DNA of 64,000 nt from Treponema sp. (GCF_051883275.1 NZ_JBJETK010000004.1:13270-77269), one strand, 5' to 3'; positions 1,484 through 12,910 are shown, counted from the first letter of the stretch. Numbers and translations are program-made. The notes: a model not told the origin generated them from the letters alone.

Positions 1484-1532
1484 TCTACCTTCCTCCCACA
1501 ATTTTGATTTCTTTGTCGGTGGCGGTGATTTG
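1484..1532 (-). repeat. Relic copy 3 of the Type IIG R-M gene 3' end, with an internal 45-bp deletion
   Basis: Reads QITATDKEIKIVGGR* versus QITATDKEINALVYKLYDLTAEEIAIVEGR* in the gene (4951-5044). The deletion joins two AAGAAAT microhomologies. Confidence 0.9.
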
Positions 1533-1537
1533 ATTTT

Positions 1538-1876
1538 TTATATTGCCAGTAAATCAGAAATTGCGGCAGAAATATTCAGCATTATGGCAGGGGATAGTTT
1601 TGATACTTTCTCTACAAGACAGGATTTATCAACTATTCCAATCTGTGGAGTAAGTGCAACAGAATCTTTTGAAAGTCCTGTATCAGATTTTTTTAGAAAA
1701 ATATTATCTTTATGTTCTGCAAGAAGAGTATTTGTTGTAAGGGGAACTACTACAGTTGTCATTATGCGGCTTGCATTGAAATTATCATTTTGAACGATAA
1801 CGGCAGGTCGTCTGCCTTGAGGCATACTGCCATAGGCAAGTCCAAAATCAACCCACCAGATTTCACCACGTGTCAT
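1538..1876 (-). CDS. mazF: MazF/PemK family mRNA interferase toxin
   Basis: MTRGEIWWVDFG...GRRPAVIVQND...VVVPLTT is the canonical PemK/MazF signature; 112 aa. Confidence 0.95.
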   Translation of the reverse strand: MTRGEIWWVDFGLAYGSMPQGRRPAVIVQNDNFNASRIMTTVVVPLTTNTLLAEHKDNIFLKKSDTGLSKDSVALTPQIGIVDKSCLVEKVSKLSPAIMLNISAAISDLLAI

Positions 1877-2117
1877 TCTTTACAGCCTCCCACATGGTAC
1901 GCATAGAAGAATGTGCGGCTGCAAGCTGTTCCTCCTGAGGAATTTTGTCATACACTGCGTTAATGCGGTCAACTTCTGCCTGATTTATATTAGAGCCATT
2001 TTGAACAGAACGTTTTTTTGCAAGCAGCAACTGAACTTTTTCGTAGATTCCTTCAAGAGATGGAATGTCAAGTTTATCGAGTTCAGAATTAAAATAGGCA
2101 TAAGCAAAATCACTCAT
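1863..2117 (-). CDS. Putative antitoxin of the MazF toxin
   Basis: 84 aa ORF directly upstream of mazF and overlapping its start, with a GGAGG RBS. The call is positional; no antitoxin fold was recognised. Confidence 0.7.
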   Translation of the reverse strand: MSDFAYAYFNSELDKLDIPSLEGIYEKVQLLLAKKRSVQNGSNINQAEVDRINAVYDKIPQEEQLAAAHSSMRTMWEAVKNDTW

Positions 2118-2180
2118 ACGGCTACCTCCATAACTTAAAATATATCACAATTTGATTGAAAAATCATCTGTTTTTCCCTT

Positions 2181-2288
2181 TCTACCTCCCTTCCACGACT
2201 TTGATTTCTTCTTCGGTCAAATCGTAGAGTTTGTACACTAAGGCGTTTATTTCTTTGTCGGTGGCGGTGATTTGCTGGAGCAGGTGTT
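2181..2288 (-). repeat. Relic copy 2 of the Type IIG R-M gene 3' end
   Basis: 2181-2274 matches 4951-5044 at 89/94 nt (QITATDKEINALVYKLYDLTEEEIKVVEGR*). 2275-2288 matches 5057-5070 at 12/14 after a 12-bp gap. Confidence 0.95.
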
Positions 2289-2322
2289 ATATACACCACG
2301 ATATTTATCGGCGCGAGTTTTA

Positions 2323-2460
2323 AAAAAACAACTTTTTCTGTATATAGTAAAAAATTGGCGCGAGTTTTGAAAAAACTCGGTAGCAAAGAGAATCTTTGCG
2401 GAGTTATCTCCCGAAACTCAATCGGCTTACGCCGAAATTTGAACTTTGGGAGGCTGGCAT
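2323..2460 (+). repeat. Duplicate of the promoter/leader region of the type I toxin (partner copy 3337-3515)
   Basis: 2323-2376 matches 3337-3390 (one mismatch) and 2403-2460 matches 3458-3515. This copy stops at GGCAT, inside the toxin ATG. Confidence 0.9.
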
Positions 2461-2463
2461 TTT

Positions 2464-3051
2464 TTAACCATTGGTAAAAAGACAGTATTCACTGCATTTT
2501 TCTTCAAGGAGTTTGAAATCACAACAAAAAGGAATAATACGTCCTGTTTTCATCTGCTTTTCATACAATCTACCGGCTTTTTGAATAATCAAATTCAATA
2601 TTTTTAAACAAAAAACAAATTCTTTATTCATAAGGTTTTTATAGTTTCGAGTTTCTTCTGAATCTGACTCTGAATGAATTAAATCTACTTTTGTATATAA
2701 TCCATCTTTTATAGGTATCATCTTTTTTAAGTCTATGATAGACAGCAGATGTTCAATTGTTCCATCAGACATTTCTTTGCAAACGGCTTTTCCAGAAACA
2801 GCAGATTTATCATATTTTTCATATATTAAAAAACGATCTGCTTCTATATTTTTCCAAGTCTTGTGTTTTTCCTTTGCGGATGAAAGAGGAATCACATATT
2901 GAATATTTTCCGAATTTAATAAAATACCAAGATACGGCTTATTATCATATCCAATCGATTTGTAATAGACTTCGGAACAAAATTCATGCAGGTATTTTAA
3001 GTAATCTTGATTTATATTTATGAAAGTGAGCTTGTCTTTTAAGGAAAACAT
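2464..3051 (-). CDS. toxN: Type III toxin-antitoxin toxin, ToxN/AbiQ family endoribonuclease
   Basis: L-x-F-x-x-I-x-x-DYLKYL...KPYLGILL...YVIPLSSAKEKHKTWKN...IIDLKKMIPI motif order fits ToxN/AbiQ. A promoter, short RNA and terminator lie upstream. Confidence 0.88.
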   Translation of the reverse strand: MFSLKDKLTFININQDYLKYLHEFCSEVYYKSIGYDNKPYLGILLNSENIQYVIPLSSAKEKHKTWKNIEADRFLIYEKYDKSAVSGKAVCKEMSDGTIEHLLSIIDLKKMIPIKDGLYTKVDLIHSESDSEETRNYKNLMNKEFVFCLKILNLIIQKAGRLYEKQMKTGRIIPFCCDFKLLEEKCSEYCLFTNG

Positions 3052-3062
3052 ATTACCGCCTG

Positions 3063-3097
3063 AAAAAAAATAAGGCCGCCTGAAACAACAGACGACC
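3063..3097 (-). terminator. Intrinsic terminator between the antitoxin RNA and toxN
   Basis: Minus strand GGTCGTCTG-ttgttt-CAGGCGGCC (9-bp stem with G-U pairs) followed by TTATTTTTTTT. Confidence 0.85.
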
Positions 3098-3155
3098 CTT
3101 CTTAAAGTTCATCTCTTTACGGATTCAAACCGCAGGTTAATGGAGACCTTCTGAA
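3063..3155 (-). ncRNA. Putative type III antitoxin RNA (ToxI-like), about 1.2 repeats of ~50 nt
   Basis: Lies between a TTGACC-17-TATATT promoter and the terminator. A partial repeat TTTCAGAAGGT / TTTAAGAAGGG is spaced 50 nt apart. Confidence 0.6.
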
Positions 3156-3159
3156 ATTA

Positions 3160-3188
3160 AATATAATGCAGAATATGAGTAAGGTCAA
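3160..3188 (-). promoter_or_regulatory. Sigma70-type promoter of the toxI-toxN unit
   Basis: TTGACC (3183-3188), 17 nt spacer, TATATT (3160-3165). Confidence 0.7.
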
Positions 3189-3240
3189 TATTTCGGGCGG
3201 CTTTTTGCTACATTCCACATTCGTTCCATTCCGCAAAAAA

Positions 3241-3321
3241 CAGGCTATTCGGGGTTCCGCTATCGCTTCATTCCTGCGCTGCGCTTCGGAACGGCTTCGC
3301 CGCCCCTACTATCCTTGCCGC
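3241..3321 (-). repeat. GC-rich REP/MITE-like dispersed element (homolog of 12911-13023)
   Basis: Its reverse complement GCGGCAAGGATAGTAGGGGCG...GAATGAAGCGATAGCGGAACCCCGAATAGCCTG aligns with GCGTTAGGGATTGTAGGAGCG...GAATGGAGCGATTAGCGGAACTCCGAAAAGCCCG. Confidence 0.75.
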
Positions 3322-3513
3322 AGGTACAATTTACTCAAAAAACACCTTTTTCTGTATATAGTAAAAAATTGGCGCGAGTTTTGAAAAAACGACTTTTCTA
3401 TATACACTATACTGTTTTATTGCTATACTATACTCATTGGAAATGCCTGAACAGGCGGTTATCTCCCGAAACTCAATCAGCTATTGCTGAAATTTGAACT
3501 TTGGGAGGCTGGC

Positions 3514-3615
3514 ATGACTTTAGAATATGTCTTGGTTGCTGTTGCAATTATCAGTTGCATCGCATCTGTCATAGGAACAGTTTATGCAGCTCTCACTTAC
3601 CATAAAAAGAAGTAG
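3514..3615 (+). CDS. 33-aa hydrophobic peptide, putative type I (holin-like/Fst-like) toxin; not in the ORF track
   Basis: MTLEYVLVAVAIISCIASVIGTVYAALTYHKKK*: one TM helix plus a Lys tail. GGGAGG RBS at 3503-3508 is paired with CTCCC (3463-3467) in a leader hairpin. Extended -10 TGCTATACT at 3421-3429. Confidence 0.75.
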   Translation: MTLEYVLVAVAIISCIASVIGTVYAALTYHKKK

Positions 3616-3618
3616 AGT

Positions 3619-3707
3619 AAAAAAATAGCCGCCAAAACTAAGTTTTCGAAGCTTTTTGGCGACTAATTCGCATAAGTGGAGATAACCCAAGTTCGGGCAT
3701 TTCCTTT
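3619..3707 (-). ncRNA. Putative antisense antitoxin RNA of the type I system
   Basis: Convergent promoter TTGACG(3737-3742)-17-TATCTT(3714-3719). Hairpin 3626-3665 is followed by a T run on the minus strand. Confidence 0.6.
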
Positions 3708-3762
3708 CTTTTTAAGATAGCACAGTTTTGAGATTTCGTCAAATTTGGAAAAGCAAAAACTA

Positions 3763-4029
3763 TTATTCAATATCAACACAAAAAATTGCAACCTTATTTA
3801 ACATTTGCATTGCATTTGATTCTAGTTCATTATGATATCTTCCTGAAGCATTATCCACACAATTAACCATTTCTAAATAGACGTTTCTATTATATCCAAA
3901 ATCTATCTTACTTGCCAAAAATCTTAATTTATTAATATATTTCCTGGCATTGTCTTTTGATGATACTGATAAAGCACAGTCAACCAGATTCTCAATTTCT
4001 TTAAATTCTTCTTTTGTAAACTTATTCAC
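3763..4029 (-). CDS. Hypothetical 88-aa helical protein
   Basis: ORF track; co-oriented with and 35 nt downstream of the RES-like gene; no motif recognised. Confidence 0.6.
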   Translation of the reverse strand: MNKFTKEEFKEIENLVDCALSVSSKDNARKYINKLRFLASKIDFGYNRNVYLEMVNCVDNASGRYHNELESNAMQMLNKVAIFCVDIE

Positions 4030-4064
4030 AATATTTCCTTGTAATCTCAGTAAAGTTTTATATA

Positions 4065-4946
4065 CTATTTTCTGAATTCAGTTTTAAGTTTAATCTCAGG
4101 AAAGTATAATCTTTGCTCCTCAGAACCACATTCATAAAACTTTGGTTTTGAATTTTCATCACCATCGCCTTTATAAAATCCACCAATATAAAAATTTTTT
4201 ACATTTGATTTATATTTGCAAACCCAAACTCCATATACCTTAAGATAATCATGAGCCTGCTTCTTTGTAAAACAAAAATTATAAAACCGAATATCTTTTG
4301 ATGATGGATATGCTATTGGAACTATCGGAAAAAGTTCCATAGTTCTTGCAATTGATTGAGTTAATTTATATAGATAATTCTTATTATCAGAAGTTAAATT
4401 CTTTCTAAGAATTCTAGATTGGAAATCCAAAATCAAATCATTATTTTTATGACTTTGACTATCATTATATTTAGGTTTTAACCCAACAGGTACATACTCA
4501 AAATCTTTAATTACTTCATAAACAATTATGAAAAATAAATCATCTCGTTTGATGCCACATTCCTTAATGCAAGTGGTATAATTTTCAGATGTATATAATA
4601 CTTGTTCATTTTCTATATTTATTCTTCCTGTTAAGCATTTTTCCAAAGGAGGTTCCCAAAAATATGATACATTTTGAATGTTTCTATAAAAGTAATCCTT
4701 TTCTTCAAATGTTTTTTTAGAATCTTTATTAAAAAAATTTACGACCCTATATAATTTTGTTTTTTGTGAACAAAGTAACTTTGGTATTAAAAAACTGCCT
4801 GCTTGAGAAAAAGATAAAGTTTTACAATACTCTGCACAAATTTCAGCTTCAGACATACTTTCAAAATCCAAGCATAAAAACTTATCAAGACGACTTTTTA
4901 TTTTTTCTGTTGGAATTTGCTCTAATCTTTCTTGAAATTTGTCCAT
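4065..4946 (-). CDS. RES-domain-like protein
   Basis: LYRVV...FWEPP..C.TGRINIENEQVLYTSE...TCIKE...IAYPSS gives the R/E/S motif order of the RES family. It starts 5 nt after the R-M stop. Confidence 0.7.
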   Translation of the reverse strand: MDKFQERLEQIPTEKIKSRLDKFLCLDFESMSEAEICAEYCKTLSFSQAGSFLIPKLLCSQKTKLYRVVNFFNKDSKKTFEEKDYFYRNIQNVSYFWEPPLEKCLTGRINIENEQVLYTSENYTTCIKECGIKRDDLFFIIVYEVIKDFEYVPVGLKPKYNDSQSHKNNDLILDFQSRILRKNLTSDNKNYLYKLTQSIARTMELFPIVPIAYPSSKDIRFYNFCFTKKQAHDYLKVYGVWVCKYKSNVKNFYIGGFYKGDGDENSKPKFYECGSEEQRLYFPEIKLKTEFRK

Positions 4947-4951
4947 ATCTT

Positions 4952-7900
4952 CTACCTCCCTTCCACGATTGCAATTTCTTCTGCGGTCAAATCGTAGAGT
5001 TTGTACACTAAGGCGTTTATTTCTTTGTCGGTGGCGGTGATTTGGGTTTGTAGTTCCTGGAGCTGGTTTTTTGTGTCTTCAAAAATTTCGAGCCATTCGA
5101 GTTTGGTTTTTGGGGTGACTTTCTGCTTGAGTTCTTTCATAAAACCGTCAAAGTCCAGGTCGTAGAAAGTTTCCAGTTTTGTACTGATTTTTTCCAGCGC
5201 AAATGTCTGTTTTACAACTTTTAGGAAGTTGCCGGATTTTTTCTGCAAGTTTTCGTTGAGTGCGAGCATTTTGTCTGTCAAATCATCTAATTCTTTATTG
5301 TTTTCAAAATCTGGTATCGGAATTTGTTCAAAGTATTGCGGTTTTACTTCGATGTAACCGCCGTTTCTAACTACACAAATAGACGTAAGGAACTTCCATA
5401 CTATTTTTGAATTTAGAATGCTGACTAAAGATTTGTTATCAGTTGGAAGCATACAGCAAGGGGCTGAAACAATAGTTTTTGTTTCATCGTAAGAGAATTT
5501 GTTACTGTTTTGCAGGTTTCCCCAAATTACTTTGTTTTTTTCAAATAATGATTGATAAGCACAATTCCTTAAATTATAAGGCGTTTTTCCCTTGTCATAT
5601 CTTTTTTCAAGTTTGTCATAAAATCCATTCAGATAGTTTTTAACTGCCTTATAATCATCTATGTTTATCACGTCAATATCATCATAACCGTTATGAACTG
5701 ATAAAATATATTTTTCGATTGGACGATTAATCCATTTGTTCAAATCTTTGCCCTCAAAAACTTTTTTTATCAATTCGGCAGATTTCGGATCTTCTTCTAT
5801 AAGCCTGTTTTTTGTCGCTTCGTCAATAAAAAACGCTTCATTTAATCCCGTTAAAACACCTCTATAACATTTTCCGTATTTTTCAGAAACAGTAGGAAAA
5901 GAAGTTATCTTATTCAGAATAGATTTTAATTCGTTACTTTCAAAAGACCAGCTTTCACTATTTAAATTGGCTTGAGAAACATTCACATCATTACAGGCAT
6001 TTATAACGATATTTCCATTCATTGAATTAGGAATTTTTTTGTAAATGAAAATGTTGCCTTCTTCAAATTTCTTTTTCAAAATCAAAATAATCGGGTAAGT
6101 TGTTGCACCAGAGAATATTTGAACTTCTGTAAAATCAACATATTTTTCAATAGTTGTTTTTGTCGCTATAAAATCCCTTAATGTTTTTCCCGAAGTGGTT
6201 TTATCAAAAGTATTTGAAATAAATCCAAAAATGCCGTTTTCATTCAACAGGCTTAAGCCTTTTTCATAAAAATATGAGAACAAATCACCGTCTGGATTAA
6301 ATACATTGAAATTGTTTTTATAAAAAGTTATGTCTTTTGACAATAAAAGTTCAGCCCTGACATACGGCGGATTTCCAATTACTACATCAAAACCGCCTTT
6401 TTCGAACACTTCGGGGAATTCTTTTTCCCAGACGAAGGCTTTTTCGCCGGCTACGGCGGGGTCGTCGATGAGGGAGTTTCCGCATTTTATTTTGTTGTTC
6501 AGGGTGGTGAGTTTGCGGTCTTTTTGGGCAGTGTGCAGCCACAGGCTCAGTTTTGTAATTTCTACGCTTTCTTCGTTGATGTCTACGCCGTAAAGGTTGT
6601 TTTCCAGAATAGAGTTATCAGAATATTCGGCAAACGCCATTGTGTCATTGTTGATTGTGCGCAGAAAATCAAAAACGCGCCGGTGCTCTGTCTTGAGCTG
6701 AGTGAGGGCGGCAGTAAGGAATGCTCCGCTTCCGCAGGCAGGGTCTAGAATTTTCAACGTAAAAAGCCATTCCTGATATTCGTTGAGGGCTTTGTTCAGC
6801 CTGTCCTTTTCCTTTTTTGTCAGGGCTTTTGAAATGGCTTCGTCGTTTATGTTCAGTTCGGCACGCTTTTGTTCGCAGAGTTTTCCGATGGTGTTTTCTA
6901 CAATATATTTTGTGATGTATTCCGGCGTGTAGAAAACTCCGTCTTTTTTGCGCTTTCCCACATTATTGTTTTCAACTTTTTCGCCTGATTTTTCCGCTTC
7001 GATTTCTTTTTGAATTTCCTCGATTTCGGTGAGCGAGTTTTCAAAAATGCGTCCGAGAATGTCTACGGAAATCTGACTTTCAAAATCGTAATCTGCCAGC
7101 CGTTTTGTATGAATAAAAAGAACGTCGTCGCCGATTTTCAGACTGTCAAGAATTTCGTCCTGTTTGAAAAGTCCGCCGTTGTAGGCAAAAATGTTTTTAG
7201 TGCTGTCACTTTCGCTTTTGTAGCCTTTGTCTATTCTGTCAAAATAAGTTTTAAAAACACTGTACAGTGGCTGAGCGTAACCCATTTCCTTTAATTTCTG
7301 ATAGTCGCCGATAATGCCCATTACGCTGTTTGCCGGCAAAAGTCCGCGGTCTTCGCAAAAGAGGATAAACAAAATCCTGTCCAGAAGTTTCTGCGTTTTT
7401 TTGAACAGTACGAGTTTGTCTATTTCCGGGTTGTTTTCTATCATATCTTCAAACAGAAGGCGCTTGAACGTTGAATAGTCCGCATAAAAATTGTCGGTAA
7501 TCTGTTTTTCTTCGCTCAAAGTTTCGTGCTTGATTTTTAGCGGAACGTCGTTTTTGAGCTGGGTCAGTTCCATAAGAAGATACAGAATGCAGAAGTCCTC
7601 ATAGTTCAGCGTGAAAAGGTTGAATTCTATAAATTCGATTTGCGTTTCCACATAAACACGAAGACGCTCGAAGTTGCAGACTATTACGTAGTTGCAGTTT
7701 TCGTGGTGGGATTTGTAGTCGAATGCCTGACGGGCAACTGTGTCAAGGTCGGTGGTGTCTGTGCCTTTAAGTTCGATTACGGCACGCACGGAATTTTCGT
7801 TGTTTTCTTCGCAGATTGCGCCGTCTGACTTTCGGGCATTGTTCTTGTTTTTGGTTTCGTTTTTGAGTTCGGTAAGAATGTTGTAATCCGGCTCCGGCTT

Positions 7901-8092
7901 TATCGTATAGTTCAAGACTGAACAGAATACGTCGCGGATAAAGCCTTCCTGATACTGTTCTTCTTTTATCGTGCGGATATTTGCGATTTTAGTTTCGTTT
8001 TTGTAGTTTGCGCAGAAGAGTTCGTATTTTTCGTGTAAGAGGTTTGCATCTATTTTTGAAAGGTATTTTTCGATTATTGATTTTTGAAACAT
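4952..8092 (-). CDS. Type IIG restriction-modification enzyme (Eco57I/TaqI-like: nuclease + N6-adenine MTase + TRD)
   Basis: 1046 aa. N-terminal SDGAI...VIELKG PD-(D/E)XK motif, motif I ILDPACGSGAFL, motif IV VIGNPPYVR, and a TaqI_C-like TRD near the C-terminus. Confidence 0.95.
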   Translation of the reverse strand: MFQKSIIEKYLSKIDANLLHEKYELFCANYKNETKIANIRTIKEEQYQEGFIRDVFCSVLNYTIKPEPDYNILTELKNETKNKNNARKSDGAICEENNENSVRAVIELKGTDTTDLDTVARQAFDYKSHHENCNYVIVCNFERLRVYVETQIEFIEFNLFTLNYEDFCILYLLMELTQLKNDVPLKIKHETLSEEKQITDNFYADYSTFKRLLFEDMIENNPEIDKLVLFKKTQKLLDRILFILFCEDRGLLPANSVMGIIGDYQKLKEMGYAQPLYSVFKTYFDRIDKGYKSESDSTKNIFAYNGGLFKQDEILDSLKIGDDVLFIHTKRLADYDFESQISVDILGRIFENSLTEIEEIQKEIEAEKSGEKVENNNVGKRKKDGVFYTPEYITKYIVENTIGKLCEQKRAELNINDEAISKALTKKEKDRLNKALNEYQEWLFTLKILDPACGSGAFLTAALTQLKTEHRRVFDFLRTINNDTMAFAEYSDNSILENNLYGVDINEESVEITKLSLWLHTAQKDRKLTTLNNKIKCGNSLIDDPAVAGEKAFVWEKEFPEVFEKGGFDVVIGNPPYVRAELLLSKDITFYKNNFNVFNPDGDLFSYFYEKGLSLLNENGIFGFISNTFDKTTSGKTLRDFIATKTTIEKYVDFTEVQIFSGATTYPIILILKKKFEEGNIFIYKKIPNSMNGNIVINACNDVNVSQANLNSESWSFESNELKSILNKITSFPTVSEKYGKCYRGVLTGLNEAFFIDEATKNRLIEEDPKSAELIKKVFEGKDLNKWINRPIEKYILSVHNGYDDIDVINIDDYKAVKNYLNGFYDKLEKRYDKGKTPYNLRNCAYQSLFEKNKVIWGNLQNSNKFSYDETKTIVSAPCCMLPTDNKSLVSILNSKIVWKFLTSICVVRNGGYIEVKPQYFEQIPIPDFENNKELDDLTDKMLALNENLQKKSGNFLKVVKQTFALEKISTKLETFYDLDFDGFMKELKQKVTPKTKLEWLEIFEDTKNQLQELQTQITATDKEINALVYKLYDLTAEEIAIVEGR

Positions 8093-8240
8093 TGTGGTTC
8101 TCCGTCTGGTGGTTTGCCTCTATTTTAGTTTAGCATTTTTGGGGAGAATTTTCTATAAAATTGTAAACCGGAAGAAAAAGCTGCAAGTTCGGGATGACAA
8201 AAACGTATTAGCATCCCCAAATGCACGGACAAAAAAATAT

Positions 8241-8389
8241 TTCATCAAGAACAAAATTTATTTTCATCTTGAGCAAAAATTATCTTTATCTTGAACAAAT
8301 ATTCAGAAAACAGGCTTTTTACGCCTTGCAAACAGTCTTTTTTCATGTTGTAAACAGTCTATTTACAGCCTGTAAACAGACTGTTTACA
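8241..8389. repeat. Array of seven near-palindromic sites at 22-bp spacing (three TTYATCWWGAnnAA, then four TGTAAACAG-N-CTGTTTACA-type)
   Basis: Site centres at about 8247.5, 8269.5, 8291.5, 8314, 8336, 8358 and 8380. The last site (8371-8389) is a perfect palindrome; the site at 8305-8323 is degenerate. Confidence 0.8.
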
Positions 8390-8567
8390 GATTTTTGCAA
8401 AAATACGAAGTCTAATTCTTTATTATATAATAACATAGAACGACATAAAAAACAATAAATTTTTATTTTTGCAAGGAATCTTTTTCATTTCCCTCTCTTC
8501 CCCTGCAATATTCAAACTCAACCGTATCTTGAAATCAAATGGAATTACATCTCTACCCAACTATAAT

Positions 8568-8594
8568 CGTCACCCCGAACTCGTTTCGGGGTCT
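8568..8594 (+). repeat. CGTC-tagged REP-like palindrome
   Basis: CGTC-ACCCCGAA-ctcgt-TTCGGGGT. A related half site (GTCATCCCGAACTTG, minus strand) lies at 8184-8198. Confidence 0.65.
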
Positions 8595-8793
8595 ATACGC
8601 TATATATAGTGCGGATTCTGAAACAAGATGTCATGATATAAATATCTGAAATGTGGTACTCTGATTCGACGGAATCAGAGAGTCGGCGGAAGGTTCTTCC
8701 GAACAGTGAAGAAGGCACCTAAAAAAAGTCTCTTACTTCGAAAACAAGATTGACCAAAAACGTTGTTAGTCGTTTTTATCCAATTCTATGAAA

Positions 8794-9273
8794 TTACCAT
8801 TGACTTTTATCTATCTGATATTTTTTAAAAATTCCTTTATTAGAATCCCATATAAGTGAAATTCCTTCCGTAACATTTTTTCCATTTTCACAGTAATAAA
8901 TTGTGTGAATATATCCTGTTTTTTCAGTTATATTAATTTTCCAACCATAAAACTGTTTTCCTTTTATATCTGATGAAAACAAAACAGTATTGTTTGTTTC
9001 AATTTTATTTTCAGAAAACTTTATGTAAGGATATACTTCATTTTTATTACTCGGTAATTCATAAATTATTGCTTTATCAAATATTTGTCTTTCAGAATCT
9101 TTATAATTAGCTGATAAATACATTTTTTTTCCACAAATACTAATTATTTCTGTTTTAAAATTATTATCTCCAAAATAGGACTCTAGATATGAAAGAGGTT
9201 CTTTTGAATGTATACGAAAGGCACAAAATACTAACAGAAAAATTGCTGTAAATGTCTTAAATCGCTTTTCCAT
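8794..9273 (-). CDS. Exported protein, putative immunity protein for the upstream NlpC/P60 domain
   Basis: 159 aa with a signal-peptide-like N-terminus (MEKRFKTFTAIFLLVFCAFRIHS). Starts 9 nt after the fusion gene stop. The function is inferred from position. Confidence 0.65.
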   Translation of the reverse strand: MEKRFKTFTAIFLLVFCAFRIHSKEPLSYLESYFGDNNFKTEIISICGKKMYLSANYKDSERQIFDKAIIYELPSNKNEVYPYIKFSENKIETNNTVLFSSDIKGKQFYGWKINITEKTGYIHTIYYCENGKNVTEGISLIWDSNKGIFKKYQIDKSQW

Positions 9274-9282
9274 AATTATCTC

Positions 9283-10197
9283 CTAAAATCGTAAGCTTCT
9301 GATTTCCCCAGTTTGAGGTAAAGGGGTTTCAATTAATTCTATAAGACCAGGATTGTCTAAGGTGTTTTCAGGTCCACCAGAGGCATTTACTCTGGCACCA
9401 TTTGAATTAACTATAGTTTGGACATGTACTATTCTGCCGTCTTCATCTCGCAAGAAACGTAAATCACCTCTTTGAAGAGGCCCATTAACAGGTTCTGTGT
9501 AATTAGCATAAATATCACTAGCTGTTTGATCCGGTATATTATTTCCCATTTGATTAAGACCGTATATTATTGAACCAGAACAATCCATTCCACCGTCTTC
9601 TGGTGAATTACCACCCCAAACATATGAACTTCCAACTAAGTTTTCCATAGTTTCTGCAAACTGCTCTGCAGATCCACTTAATTGTGAAGAATTATTATTA
9701 AAAGTATTATCTATAGAGTTTTCTGCTGCAATATTTTGGTTTGCAGGCAAAGTATATGCGGTAGTAGTATCATTGTCTGTTTCAATACCTTCATGTGCGA
9801 TTTCCATTCTTTCAAGTGCAAAGGTATTAGAACATGAACAATCAAGTTTTGGACCAATCCAGCGGCAAGGTATTGCCCGAAAGAAATTCCATCGTTTGAT
9901 TTCATTTCCTTCTGTATCTTTTAGGACAATCGAACCACTTTTACGTTCGACTTTTTCTGAAATTAAGAAATTCTTGAACCAGTTGAATAATTCATCGTTG
10001 TTGCTGATTCCCTTTTCTAGAACAAAATTTGGATAGCGAGTTCGCCCCTTAAAACGATGAACGCCGCCACCACCTTCTTCAATTTCAAATACTTCAGTTT
10101 CAGCTTCTAAGCCTTCACATTTTTGAAATCTTGCAGTTTCAATTCCGTCAAGTTCTATAAAAAATAAATATGATTTTAAATTAGAGTTATCTGCCAT
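9283..10197 (-). CDS. Fusion of a T4-gp19/Afp1-like contractile tail tube domain (aa ~1-140) and an NlpC/P60 peptidoglycan hydrolase domain (aa ~175-304)
   Basis: Tube motifs: FFIELDG..ARFQKCEGLEAETEVFEIEEGG...GRTRYPNFVLEKGI...LFNWF...RKSGSIVL.D..G.EI.RWNF.RA.PCRW.GP.L...ERMEIAHEG. NlpC/P60 motifs: LVGSSYVWGG...GMDCSG...GDL.F...IVHV...VNAS. Confidence 0.9.
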   Translation of the reverse strand: MADNSNLKSYLFFIELDGIETARFQKCEGLEAETEVFEIEEGGGGVHRFKGRTRYPNFVLEKGISNNDELFNWFKNFLISEKVERKSGSIVLKDTEGNEIKRWNFFRAIPCRWIGPKLDCSCSNTFALERMEIAHEGIETDNDTTTAYTLPANQNIAAENSIDNTFNNNSSQLSGSAEQFAETMENLVGSSYVWGGNSPEDGGMDCSGSIIYGLNQMGNNIPDQTASDIYANYTEPVNGPLQRGDLRFLRDEDGRIVHVQTIVNSNGARVNASGGPENTLDNPGLIELIETPLPQTGEIRSLRF

Positions 10198-10288
10198 AAT
10201 AATTCCATTCTATTATATTCCATATAAACAATGAAAATATATAAAAATAGTTACATTATTTGGAGAACTGCGCCCCAGTGCGGTCGTC

Positions 10289-10395
10289 CGACTAACTATG
10301 CAGCTAAACCGCAACGCAATTTACAGCCACACGAATCGCTCGCGTTTTTTCCTTAAGTTTAAATCCGTCAAAAACTGCTCCCGCATGAAGCGAAA
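10289..10395 (+). other. Possible truncated integron attC site
   Basis: Begins CGACTAAC, the exact complement of GTTAGTCG at 8765-8772. An internal hairpin is present, but the distal arm is missing and is replaced by an IS110 fragment. Confidence 0.45.
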
Positions 10396-10399
10396 AATG

Positions 10400-10550
10400 A
10401 AGGGCAATCAGAATGTAGTACCAGTGGCTTGCTGCAAGAAAATTGGCAGAGCTGATGTACACTCTGTTGAAAAATGGTATGTCATATGAAAAAAGAGCTT
10501 CCGTGTCAGCTAAACAGCTGGCAGCAGAAGTCCTTGCAATGGCCAGTTAA
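10400..10550 (+). pseudogene. IS110-family transposase C-terminal remnant
   Basis: Manual translation across a frameshift gives KGNQNVVPVA/ARKLAELMYTLLKNGMSYEKR...*, resembling the IS110 C-terminal A-V-A-R-K-L...L-K motif. Confidence 0.6.
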
Positions 10551-10697
10551 TTATTGGAATCAGGAGCTTCATGGTATTGACAAATATCATAGGAGTTCAG
10601 AATGACACCAGTTTTTAGATACTTTTTCCCATATTTTTCACTTGATTTTCACTGATTTTTCACATATATTAACTGTAAAAGCACTTTAAACAATGTT

Positions 10698-10976
10698 TTG
10701 GAGGACAATATGGCAAACATTACAATTACTTTGGACGATCAGGATAAAACTGCTATTTCTAATTTCTGCGAGCAGATTGGCATGACTGTTTCAGGGCTTT
10801 ACAATGTTTTTACAAAGCAGGTTATCCGCGAAGGACGCATTCCGTTTGAAATCAAAGTTGACCGCCCGAACCGCAAGACAATCAAAGCAATGCTCGAAGG
10901 CGACAAAATCGCAAACGACCCGAATGTCAAAGGATATACAAATGTTCACGAAATGATGGAGGCTTTGCTTAAATAA
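10698..10976 (+). CDS. dinJ: RelB/DinJ family antitoxin
   Basis: ITITLDDQDK...IGMTVSGLYNVFTKQVIREGRIPFEI...PNRKTIKAM.EG; overlaps the yafQ start. Confidence 0.9.
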   Translation: MEDNMANITITLDDQDKTAISNFCEQIGMTVSGLYNVFTKQVIREGRIPFEIKVDRPNRKTIKAMLEGDKIANDPNVKGYTNVHEMMEALLK

Positions 10977-11278
10977 TGGAATTTTCAAAGAAAAAAACAA
11001 AATATGAAATGCGTTTTACATCTGCAATGAAAAAAGACATGAAAAAAATTGTAAAACGCCATTATGATTTAAATCTTTTTGCAGAAACCGTTGAAAAACT
11101 CGCTAATGCCCAGCCTCTTGAAGAAAAATACTGCGACCATGCCCTTGAAGGAAACTGGAAAGGTCATCGTGAACTGCACATAAGACCTGACTGGCTGTTA
11201 ATTTATCAGATTAAAGACGATGTGCTTATCCTTGAACTTTCCAGAACCGGAACCCATTCAGATTTATTCGGAAAATAA
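10976..11278 (+). CDS. yafQ: YafQ family mRNA interferase toxin
   Basis: FTSAMKKDMK...PLEEKYCDHALEGNWKGHRELHIRPDWLLIY...L.L.RTGTHSDLF. Confidence 0.95.
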   Translation: MEFSKKKTKYEMRFTSAMKKDMKKIVKRHYDLNLFAETVEKLANAQPLEEKYCDHALEGNWKGHRELHIRPDWLLIYQIKDDVLILELSRTGTHSDLFGK

Positions 11279-11394
11279 AATCTCTCCAATACTCTGTAAG
11301 TTTATCACATTTTTTGAATGTTGTCTGTTTTTTGCATGTACTGCATTGAGGTAAAAAAATTGGCACTTGTTTATTTCTTGTATATCCTAAAAAA

Positions 11395-12255
11395 ATGAAT
11401 GTCAAATCTAAAAAACAGCTTGAGCAGGTTGATTTTCTCAATGCAATAAATGAACTTGGAATAGGCGGTGCTGACGTATGTGTTCACGCATCGGTAAAAT
11501 CGTTCGGGGCAAAGATTAACTGCGGAATAAAGGGAATCGTCTTGGCTTTTTTGTCGCAGGACTGCACTGTGATGGTTCCGGCATTTTGCGATGAATACGA
11601 AGCGCGGCCCGAAAAAAAATATATGCCCGAACGGAACGGAGCAGGGGACTATTCATTTTTTTTGAACAGGGACTATCCTGTAAAAAAAATCTTTGACGTA
11701 ACGAGCAGAGAAATTTCGCTTGAAGAAATGGGACTGTTTTCAAAAACCGTTCTGGATTTTGAAAATGCCGTCAGGGGAAACAACCCTTTAAACTCATTCG
11801 CCGCAGTCGGACGCAATGCAGAAAAACTTACGCTCTCGCAGACTGCCCGCGACGTTTATGCTCCGTTACGCAGACTGTGTGACGACGGCGGCTACGTCCT
11901 TTTAATCGGCGTCGGACTTGATTCTGCAACAATCATTCATTACGCTGAACAGCTCGCAGGCAGAACTCCGTTTGTCAGATGGGCATACGGCAAAGACCTT
12001 CGCGTAATTCCCGTATCAGCCGGAAGCTGCTCCGACGGCTTTGAAAACCTCGCTCCGTTCGTCAGCCCCATCGCCCGAAAAACAAAAGTTGCCGAAAGCG
12101 AATGGATATGCTTCAAAGCCTCCGACCTCGCCGCCCTCTGCCAGACCCAAATCACCCGAACCCCAAAAATAACCCATTGCCCCGACCCCACCTGCCCCCG
12201 CTGCAACGACGCCATCTCCGGCGGCCCAATCCTCCCACCAGACTTCTGGAAGTAA
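11395..12255 (+). CDS. AAC(3) family aminoglycoside N3-acetyltransferase homolog
   Basis: VCVHASVKSFG...TVMVPAF...RGNNPLNSFAAVG...VLLIGVGLDSATIIHYAE..A are AAC(3)/YokD family motifs. Confidence 0.85.
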   Translation: MNVKSKKQLEQVDFLNAINELGIGGADVCVHASVKSFGAKINCGIKGIVLAFLSQDCTVMVPAFCDEYEARPEKKYMPERNGAGDYSFFLNRDYPVKKIFDVTSREISLEEMGLFSKTVLDFENAVRGNNPLNSFAAVGRNAEKLTLSQTARDVYAPLRRLCDDGGYVLLIGVGLDSATIIHYAEQLAGRTPFVRWAYGKDLRVIPVSAGSCSDGFENLAPFVSPIARKTKVAESEWICFKASDLAALCQTQITRTPKITHCPDPTCPRCNDAISGGPILPPDFWK

Positions 12256-12260
12256 TTTTT

Positions 12261-12509
12261 TTGTCGCATCTCTGTCAAAAAGTATTTGGGAATAAACGGA
12301 AAACCAAAACTGCGCGGCATTTTCCAAAAAAGAGCGGATAAATCAAGATAAAATGCTATAAATTCGGGATGAATTTGAAAACAAAACGGGATAAAAAAAG
12401 GAGCCTTGCGCGCCTGAAAAGCACCGTAACTCCTGAAACAATGTATTGATATTTGCTTCTATAATATATCAGATTTTTCTTTATTAGGCAAATGATTTTC
12501 GGCCGTTTT
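12261..12509 (+). repeat. ~250-bp direct repeat, copy a (partner 15367-15768)
   Basis: Near-identical from TTGTCGCATCTCTGTC to AAATGATTTTCG. Copy b has an extra 150 bp. Confidence 0.95.
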
Positions 12510-12720
12510 TTACTAAACGCAAAATATAATTTCCCTTCCAGACCGTTTAAAAAATACAGGTTAATAACGATTTCGATAACTTTGGAATAAGATTCTAACA
12601 TTAAAACTGGGAAATCTATATGGAAAGGCGACTGACCAAAAAGACCGCCTTAATTTTTATCCTAAATCACTTTTTTGAGAATTACCTGGTATAGAAACTT
12701 TACCAGTCTGTTCGTCTGGC

Positions 12721-12790
12721 GCAGCAGATTTTCATCTATTTTGAAAGGTATTTTTCGATTATTGATTTTTGAAACATTGTGGTTCTCCGT
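12721..12790 (-). pseudogene. Relic of the 5' end of the Type IIG R-M gene
   Basis: Matches ~8036-8104 including the start codon and upstream bases. It reads MFQKSIIEKYLSK and then stops because of a 1-nt loss; the shifted frame continues IDENLL versus IDANLL in the gene. Confidence 0.85.
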
Positions 12791-12910
12791 TTTTGTATTC
12801 TGCCTGTGTTTTACTTGCGTTCTTTTATTAATGTAAAACTGCTGGACTATTTTTTTTGATTTTAGCACGTTTGTGAAATTTTTTCTATGAAATTGCCTGC
12901 GGCTTTTTTT

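Follow-up and report, generated by a model that had tools for sequence, protein, structure and literature searches.

How do defence genes accrete at one chromosomal site when no mobility gene accompanies them? Defence islands are known hotspots, and gene accretion without mobility genes is, to our knowledge, mostly unexplained. This question is raised by an array of toxin-antitoxin (TA) and other defence cassettes that follows a Type IIG restriction-modification (R-M) gene of Treponema sp. and in which the cassettes are separated by partial copies of the 3' end of that gene, here called relics. We analyzed the array in a 64,000-nt stretch of DNA (hereafter, the window; positions 13270-77269 of the 98-kb contig C4, also denoted L005, of the source genome, G000). 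Coordinates are those of the window unless a contig is given. On balance, we consider it fairly probable that the array arose through homology-anchored replacement of the R-M gene together with its downstream cargo, the relics being reused later as homology.

The array is headed by an intact MmeI/Eco57I-like Type IIG gene (1046 aa, 4952-8092, minus strand) that PADLOC identifies as REase_MTase_IIG (E 2.3e-246, residues 1-1044 of 1046) and that contains the Pfam domains Eco57I, MmeI_N, MmeI_hel, MmeI_Mtase, and TaqI_C. The gene's own final 31 codons and stop (copy 1, 4950-5044, minus strand) recur in an orphan relic (copy 2, 2180-2274, minus strand) that encodes an allele-like variant of the C-terminus (...LTEEEIKVVEGR*) and is 95% identical to copy 1 over 95 nt in the repeat search; the earlier note on this DNA had placed the recurrence at 2181-2274. 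Upstream, the alignment of copy 2 to copy 1 restarts for ~10-14 nt past a 12-nt gap, as that note had also seen. The five changes between the two copies are clustered in 22 nt, the remaining 72 nt being unchanged, and copy 2 is closest (98.8% identity) to the R-M gene end of a metagenome-assembled genome (MAG), G231. Copy 3 (1484-1532, minus strand; the repeat search spans 1480-1540) is shortened by the 45-nt in-frame deletion previously attributed to microhomology, and in the alignment this deletion indeed sits between GAAAT(A/C)AA microrepeats. We found a fourth copy, with 93% identity over 85 nt and a 6-nt deletion, at C4:10968-11052, 2.2-2.3 kb ahead of the window start. This level of identity is far beyond chance, and a whole-genome search revealed no copy of the repeat on other contigs of the assembly. 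Each copy has its own indel signature. An Rfam scan of the island (E<=1) yielded a sole match, a chance long noncoding RNA hit over copy 2. Copy 3 and mazF are in different frames, and translation of this relic as a C-terminal extension of MazF was rejected on that ground.

The minus strand carries every gene from the Type IIG gene to the window start. Behind the R-M gene with copy 1, the first block consists of a 293-aa open reading frame (ORF; 4065-4946), an 88-aa ORF (3763-4029) that travels with it, a type I TA-like module (3337-3762), and ToxIN (2464-3190). Copy 2 follows, and then a cassette (1538-2117) of an antitoxin (84 aa, 1863-2117) and a MazF/PemK toxin (112 aa, 1538-1876). Behind copy 3 are a 351-aa ORF (423-1478) and the gene for a 329-aa PDC-S11/NucS-like/RAMA protein, of which the window holds the N-terminal part (3-407) and which continues beyond the window start. 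Farther along the contig come a small RNA (sRNA)-like module, Phd-Doc, HicAB, a 95-nt remnant of the mazF 3' end, copy 4, a truncated antitoxin-YoeB cassette, another sRNA-like module, MntA-HepT (on the opposite strand), BrnTA, and core genes. The G+C content of the blocks is 25-42% vs 43-51% in the core flank. The view that the copies are relics of the R-M gene 3' end and delimit blocks of cargo is supported by this arrangement.

The same island was compared among related genomes. An exact 34-mer of the repeat was found in one other species genome, the MAG Treponema sp. LOHA31_bin.005 (G231), and was absent from the metagenome contigs scanned; a DNA search with a 121-nt repeat in 40 relatives yielded nothing beyond weak matches to other gene ends. 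The island of G231 has the same flanks as that of G000, with HxlR on one side and BrnTA/YibE/alkaline phosphatase on the other (98% identity), and between these core flanks, independent assemblies contain one, five, or eight cassettes, with eight in G000. The order in G231 is R-M end, 162-aa ORF, 46-nt relic, sRNA module, Phd-Doc, HicAB, mazF remnant, relic, antitoxin-MazF, relic, antitoxin-YoeB, and BrnTA; the ToxIN, 293-aa, 351-aa/PDC-S11, and MntA-HepT blocks are missing. The MazF cassette, with a relic on both sides in each genome, lies behind ToxN in G000 and behind the HicAB-mazF remnant in G231. The Type IIG orthologue of G231 (L010/L049, G231:C36, 675-3817) is broken; what remains is codons 1-262 at one end and the final ~100 codons at the other, with a Dcm methyltransferase and an NgoPII-like endonuclease on the opposite strand in place of the interior.

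Other genomes carry simpler versions of the locus. At the same site, G240 has only the R-M end, the 293-aa and 88-aa ORFs, one sRNA-like module, and BrnTA; identity to G000 is 98% in the cargo and 94.6% in the core flank, and the difference between the two genomes maps to the sRNA-like module. In G169, the R-M gene is followed by the 293-aa and 88-aa ORFs and then by the type I module, so that the 293-aa ORF stands behind the R-M gene in both of these genomes, with 98% nucleotide identity. In G105, the R-M end is followed by the 351-aa ORF (with an internal deletion) and PDC-S11 and then by a second relic, of another lineage, and the YoeB cassette lies right behind the stop of a 1035-aa open frame in G238 and a 1180-aa open frame in G056. 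Thus, most of the relic-associated cargo types of G000 occur directly behind the R-M 3' end in other genomes. G280 contains a partial relic, the common leader, and antitoxin-MazF between core genes, without an R-M gene. An exact empty site for the first block was present in no genome compared; G105, G240, and G238 have single cassettes behind the R-M end. As the earlier note had anticipated, orthologous loci vary in the number of 3'-end copies and in cargo, the differences being joined at the copies, and gene content, number, and order are not the same between genomes. The junction types are seen again independently in the MAG contig JBJETJ010000036.1, in Logan contigs L052, L063, and L064, and in G240, G169, and G105. 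The Logan contigs, obtained by exact-protein look-ups, are mostly 1-3 kb long and end at the repeats, so that they confirm junctions and add no new arrangements; because contigs from several runs show the G000 junctions, the copies are not an assembly artefact. Public sequencing runs of the SRR306168xx series contain the island.

Searching 338 genomes of the genus with the last 46 residues of the R-M protein, we obtained 99 matches in 65 genomes. The open frame is at least 700 aa long in 36 of these (real genes) and shorter than 100 aa in 40. Because their open frames are under 100 codons, the latter ~40 matches can be considered orphan relics, about three of them being contig-edge effects. 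With ~40 of the 99 gene-end matches being orphans, the process that leaves such relics appears to be common in the genus. At least four relic lineages are represented, and orphans are often found in tandem, with VapBC, RelBE, YoeB, MazF, RhuM, or PrrC-like cargo between them. Examples include an R-M gene followed by two VapBC-type pairs, a relic, RelB-YafQ, a relic, and an antitoxin (G004); relic, RelB-YafQ, relic, and antitoxin-YoeB (G008); relic, PIN pair, relic, and three more PIN pairs (G188); YhcG nuclease, relic, VapBC, relic, and RhuM (G158/G103); and relic, VapBC, and relic (G225). In G056, the R-M gene is followed by the YoeB cassette, a relic of another lineage, and a gene whose N-terminus was judged PrrC/AAA_13-like by eye only. 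In a limited literature search, we found no published description of TA arrays interspersed with orphan ends of Type IIG genes.

The boundaries of the relics coincide on one side only. Downstream, the junction is nearly constant, with cargo starting ~0-17 nt past the relic stop in at least five cargo types; the distance from the preceding toxin stop to the relic start is ~0-35 nt. The upstream ends vary: among independent junctions, they lie ~46 nt (MAG B), ~85 and ~125 nt (G004), ~94-120 nt (G000), ~185 nt (G103/G158), ~210 nt (G188), and ~300 nt (MAG A) before the stop. The relics erode through internal deletions, of 45 and 6 nt in G000, and in G280 the stop codon is gone. The peptides that they encode are allele-like, and some come from a gene lineage other than that of the resident gene (G056 and G105). 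In G105, the second relic is chimeric: its first 26 nt match the genome's own gene end and the rest another lineage, indicating crossover or conversion inside the relic.

The same part of the gene takes part in the exchange of specificity domains. The R-M genes of G000 and G169 are 85% identical over nucleotides 1-1690 and over the final 324 nt, with unrelated sequence, longer in G169, in between (1196-aa vs 1046-aa protein); the swapped specificity-domain region corresponds to approximately 5280-6400 in the window. The homology of G240 to G000 likewise begins 324 nt ahead of the R-M stop. Because homology resumes at this point in both comparisons, the last 324 nt of the gene are a working recombination arm for specificity-domain swaps; its first 1690 nt are an arm as well.

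The 5' end of the R-M gene has left a relic as well. The region that includes the ribosome-binding site and the first ~19 codons of the functional gene (8040-8119, minus strand) recurs at 12726-12805 (minus strand; 52 nt exact, one base lost), and these 80-nt copies bracket a 4.6-kb insert that is absent from the MAG G231, where the sequence is continuous and represents the empty site. Other repeats that are not derived from the R-M 3' end, namely, the type I toxin leader (140-180 nt) and the sRNA-like module, flank changes in the same manner as this 5' end. The 4.6-kb insert (8120-12725) carries a tube-NlpC/P60 pair, a RelB/ParE-like TA pair (10698-11278), and a 286-aa ORF (11395-12255) judged AAC(3)-like by eye only. 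Within it, upstream of the R-M gene (8241-8389), are AAACAG-type repeats with a 22-nt period and a nearly perfect palindrome of 20 nt, which were not found upstream of the R-M gene in the MAG and may be operator sites.

The scenario that we favour starts with incoming DNA that, whatever its route into the cell, would pair by homology with the resident Type IIG gene and, in repeated events, overwrite it. In events of the kind that swap specificity domains, such DNA would bring a fresh gene end and the cargo located downstream of the donor gene, and its far end would join illegitimately within the last 50-300 nt of the resident gene, so that the old gene-end stretch and the older cargo would be displaced downstream, leaving a relic of variable length. 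Each event would be a one-sided, homology-facilitated illegitimate recombination, with an outcome resembling "insertion with long target duplication"; no dedicated recombinase would take part in array growth. The idea of the earlier note, in which an arriving 3' end displaces its predecessor downstream, agrees with the data, and homologous exchange, which it had held as an alternative to a site-specific crossover, has become the favoured explanation. Because relics from other gene lineages occur in some arrays, replacement is favoured over duplication, and the clustered allele-like changes point in the same direction. At later stages, the relics and other repeats of the island could serve as portable homology for RecA-type events, including deletion, excision of [relic+cassette] circles, re-insertion at another relic, gene conversion, and exchange between strains. 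The MazF cassette illustrates the possibility. In the MAG, it lies between two ~190-nt direct repeats, each comprising the mazF 3' end and a relic, that are 97% alike; recombination between these would yield the G000 arrangement at that site and a [relic-leader-antitoxin-MazF] circle, which could then enter the relic behind the R-M gene, as in a G105-like array.

Several observations count against this scenario. The joints between cargo and relics are tight on both sides, and more scatter would be expected if illegitimate joints were random, so that either later trimming or some site preference has to be assumed; trimming by deletion, with selection keeping addictive genes intact, may account for the tightness. 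No donor-recipient pair with a direct illegitimate joint was found among the genomes compared, which are mostly MAGs with contigs often ending in these very repeats, and the sole candidate microhomology, AAAA at the mazF/relic joint, is weak. Homologues of ComEC and DprA are present, but they are also present in most control genomes and are thus uninformative on competence.

Because the joints are tight, two other explanations are retained, one invoking an enzyme acting in trans and the other a duplication at staggered breaks. The former, which we regard as decidedly unlikely, posits a site-specific system in which a trans-encoded tyrosine or serine recombinase, or XerCD, would insert and excise promoter-bearing cassettes past the stop, with the gene end as the attachment site. 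The nearly constant downstream junction, from +0 to +17 nt of the stop across several cargo types, speaks for such a system, and so do the compact, co-oriented cassettes without terminators between them and the movement of [relic + leader + TA] as a unit, even to the R-M-free locus of G280; six tyrosine and two serine recombinase genes are encoded on other contigs of the genome. The upstream ends, however, vary between ~46 and ~300 nt, relics of different gene lineages occur in one array, and unrelated repeats show the same flanking pattern. XerCD/dif modules are bounded by 28-nt dif-like sites in which a 6-nt spacer separates two 11-nt arms, and their orientation usually alternates. The relics form direct repeats; the repeat search detected no inverted repeat in them, and no dif-like ATAA-N6-TTAT core was seen, by inspection only. 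Neither a tyrosine nor a serine recombinase is encoded on the 98-kb contig, so none accompanies the array, whose description as integrase-less holds, and there is no constancy of repeat boundaries such as an integrase island would show. In a related version, to which we likewise assign a low probability, the conserved Type IIG C-terminal coding sequence would be a true attachment site in Treponema, past whose stop promoter-bearing TA and defence cassettes would be inserted by a trans-acting recombinase or nuclease, a candidate route being a double-strand break near the gene end that is repaired from a relic-cassette-relic template; if so, the arrays would represent a second, integrase-free cassette-capture system beside the integron. 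The mechanism implied by the term integron-like array is not supported. Cassettes are co-oriented, separated by repeats, and strain-variable in content, as in integrons, where IntI is normally adjacent to the array; in the whole genome, the best score against the integron integrase model TIGR02249 was 74.5 bits vs a cut-off of 265, with no match on contig C4, and PF00589 matches are confined to contigs C73, C63, C65, and C7. Folded as DNA on both strands, copies 1 and 2 showed no attC-like structure (z -0.05 to +0.77 vs shuffles). With neither IntI nor an attC-like fold, the integron explanation was rejected.

A true target duplication, in which two staggered breaks around the gene end are filled in and the flanking copies are identical at birth, seems unlikely, if less so than a site-specific system. 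Direct repeats of 80-190 nt flank cargo at three different targets in the island, a single fixed break could explain why the downstream junction is constant, and R-M insertions that lack mobility genes are known to show this pattern (PMC2853133). Against it, the flanking copies differ by clustered allele-like substitutions (five in 22 nt and none in the other 72, between copies 1 and 2), and some relics belong to a gene lineage different from that of the resident gene. We also know of no mechanism for the staggered breaks. The relics could instead have been kept for a function, as a Shine-Dalgarno sequence, as part of a promoter or operator, or as protection of the expression signals of an addictive antitoxin, with survival limited to deletions that leave them intact, and this explanation, which is compatible with any model of their origin, strikes us as improbable. 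Relics end in GGGAGG or GGAAGG, 5-8 nt ahead of the starts of the 293-aa and 351-aa ORFs, and in G280, at a site distant from any R-M gene, the MazF cassette has kept its relic; yet the TA cassettes have their own leader, extended -10 element, and Shine-Dalgarno sequence downstream of the relic, relic length is not conserved, and the relics decay, through the 45- and 6-nt deletions and the loss of the stop in G280. That the copies reflect misassembly, or one ancient duplication without later dynamics, is scarcely credible. Many MAG and Logan contigs do end at these repeats, but the junctions recur in independent assemblies, each copy has a distinct indel signature, copy number, cargo, and order differ between genomes, and the genus contains at least four relic sequence lineages.

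The cargo was only partly what it had first been taken for. The Type IIG, ToxN/AbiQ, and MazF/PemK assignments were confirmed, whereas RES, for the 293-aa ORF (Pfam E 0.27, below the cut-off), and HNH, for the 351-aa ORF (no match in Pfam, NCBIfam, or PADLOC), were not. The 293-aa protein, without a confirmed family, also had no record in the exact-protein look-up, and the 88-aa ORF has no family match. The protein described as NucS-like is the 329-aa PDC-S11 protein, with a weakly NucS/Shedu-like N-terminus and a RAMA domain at the C-terminus. The type I TA-like module includes an ORF for a 33-aa hydrophobic peptide (3514-3615, plus strand) and a convergent promoter (TTGACG-17-TATCTT, 3742-3714, minus strand), and its sRNA-like part forms a second repeat family, with further copies at C4 12420-12686 and 10037-10302. 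ToxIN comprises the ToxN/AbiQ gene (2464-3051), an upstream leader, and an intrinsic terminator (3099-3072). Because a truncated second copy of the type I toxin leader (2323-2460, plus strand) matches 3337-3515 (repeat families of 98% and 91%), ToxIN is flanked on both sides by a long direct repeat of another target.

Expression from the R-M gene, as proposed earlier, is plausible for the first ORF only. GGGAGG-TAG forms the end of the relic, and the starts of the 293-aa and 351-aa ORFs lie 5 and 6 nt past the stop, respectively, as the earlier note had described for its Shine-Dalgarno-like sequence. With GGGAGG ahead of it, a start 5 nt past the R-M stop, and no terminator found in between, the 293-aa ORF could plausibly be reached by read-through from the R-M gene; the sole strong terminator on the minus strand of the array is the one within ToxIN. 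The TA cassettes have their own extended -10 promoters. MazF is preceded by a 62-63-nt leader (2118-2179, minus strand) in which TGATATATT forms an extended -10-like box and GGAGG a Shine-Dalgarno sequence, and the same leader heads the YoeB cassette after copy 4 (98% over 59 nt, C4 10912-10970), so that both cassettes have a common leader, extended -10-like box, and GGAGG.

Several small elements were noticed within the cassettes. YoeB is truncated to 70 aa in G000 (L005 10467-10679), next to an intact antitoxin, and is 86 aa long in the MAG and in Logan contigs L063 and L064, which come from other samples of the same study. The G056 YoeB gene is broken by a ~35-nt perfect hairpin insert (GACACACGACAC...GTGTCGTG) at about 5150-5190 of L072 (G056:C18). 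An insert of ~100 nt with two strong hairpins (GTCAAGGC...GCCTTGAC; GTGTGTATGA-AAA-TCATACACAC) lies inside two of the three sRNA-like modules (L005 12536-12640 and 10167-10269, 96% alike, without an Rfam match); there is a partial copy at C15 12700-12757, and further copies are at L043 8265-8312 and 8479-8536. It may be a small mobile element or a structured RNA element. A GC-richer intergenic repeat at 3185-3335, ~90-140 nt long, has at least 10 diverged copies on other contigs of the genome, and one copy adjoins the MazF cassette of G280 (L045 8470-8606).

If replacement is the origin of the relics, the scars of the process can be read at these loci. Each relic would mark one overwrite of the head R-M gene, and the cargo behind it would be what came with the previous version of the gene, the relics then allowing loss, movement, and exchange. 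Such a process would link specificity-domain swapping, turnover of R-M genes, and accumulation of TA systems. Orphan Type IIG C-terminal fragments are a practical marker for cassette boundaries and for unannotated defence candidates, in this case, the 293-aa/88-aa pair, the 351-aa ORF, and the 162-aa ORF.

Joining of DNA that is anchored by homology at one end and illegitimately at the other is a known route (PMC3240628). It predicts variable relic boundaries and needs no recombinase; in this organism, it is proposed from sequence, with joints unusually near the ends of genes. Insertions at R-M loci with a long target duplication of variable length, lacking mobility genes and found mostly in competent species, were described by Furuta, Abe and Kobayashi (2010; PMC2853133), who required an insert under 20 kb and direct repeats over 30 bp and also reported specificity-domain substitution in a Type IIG gene. 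The array resembles these insertions (Nobusato/Kobayashi) in the involvement of a few kb of DNA, variable direct repeats, a defence neighbourhood, and the lack of a transposase or integrase: repeat length is 95 nt for the 3' end, 80 nt for the 5' end, and 140-180 nt for the type I leader, and the contig has no integrase or resolvase gene. In those insertions, however, an R-M system enters any sequence, whereas here the ends of the R-M gene are the target and the cargo consists of TA, abortive infection (Abi), and candidate defence genes; moreover, the events here are serial, with arrays of up to four relics, and some relics of foreign lineages argue for replacement.

The minimal mobile elements of Neisseria, which cause recombination-driven variation in gene content (PMC3787668), similarly involve whole-gene cassettes that are swapped via flanking homology without mobility genes. 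Their flanks are full conserved genes and replacement is one-for-one, whereas the repeated relics of ~50-200 nt that flank the cassettes here also let these accumulate, be deleted, and move within the array. Tandem islands at the 3' ends of tRNA, tmRNA, or protein genes share with the array the restored end, the displaced old end, and tandem blocks separated by repeats, but depend on a tyrosine integrase with a fixed crossover and constant repeats, in contrast to the variable upstream ends and the missing integrase in this case. Finally, integrons are known from Treponema chromosomes, where attC forms an R/L-box stem-loop with AAC/GTT cores (PMC3607928). The likeness of the array to them is extensive, with compact, co-oriented cassettes, many of them TA, one fixed head gene, and strain-specific content; the difference is that, in place of IntI and attC stem-loops with AAC/GTT cores, the array has a repeat that is the coding sequence of its head gene and that varies in length.

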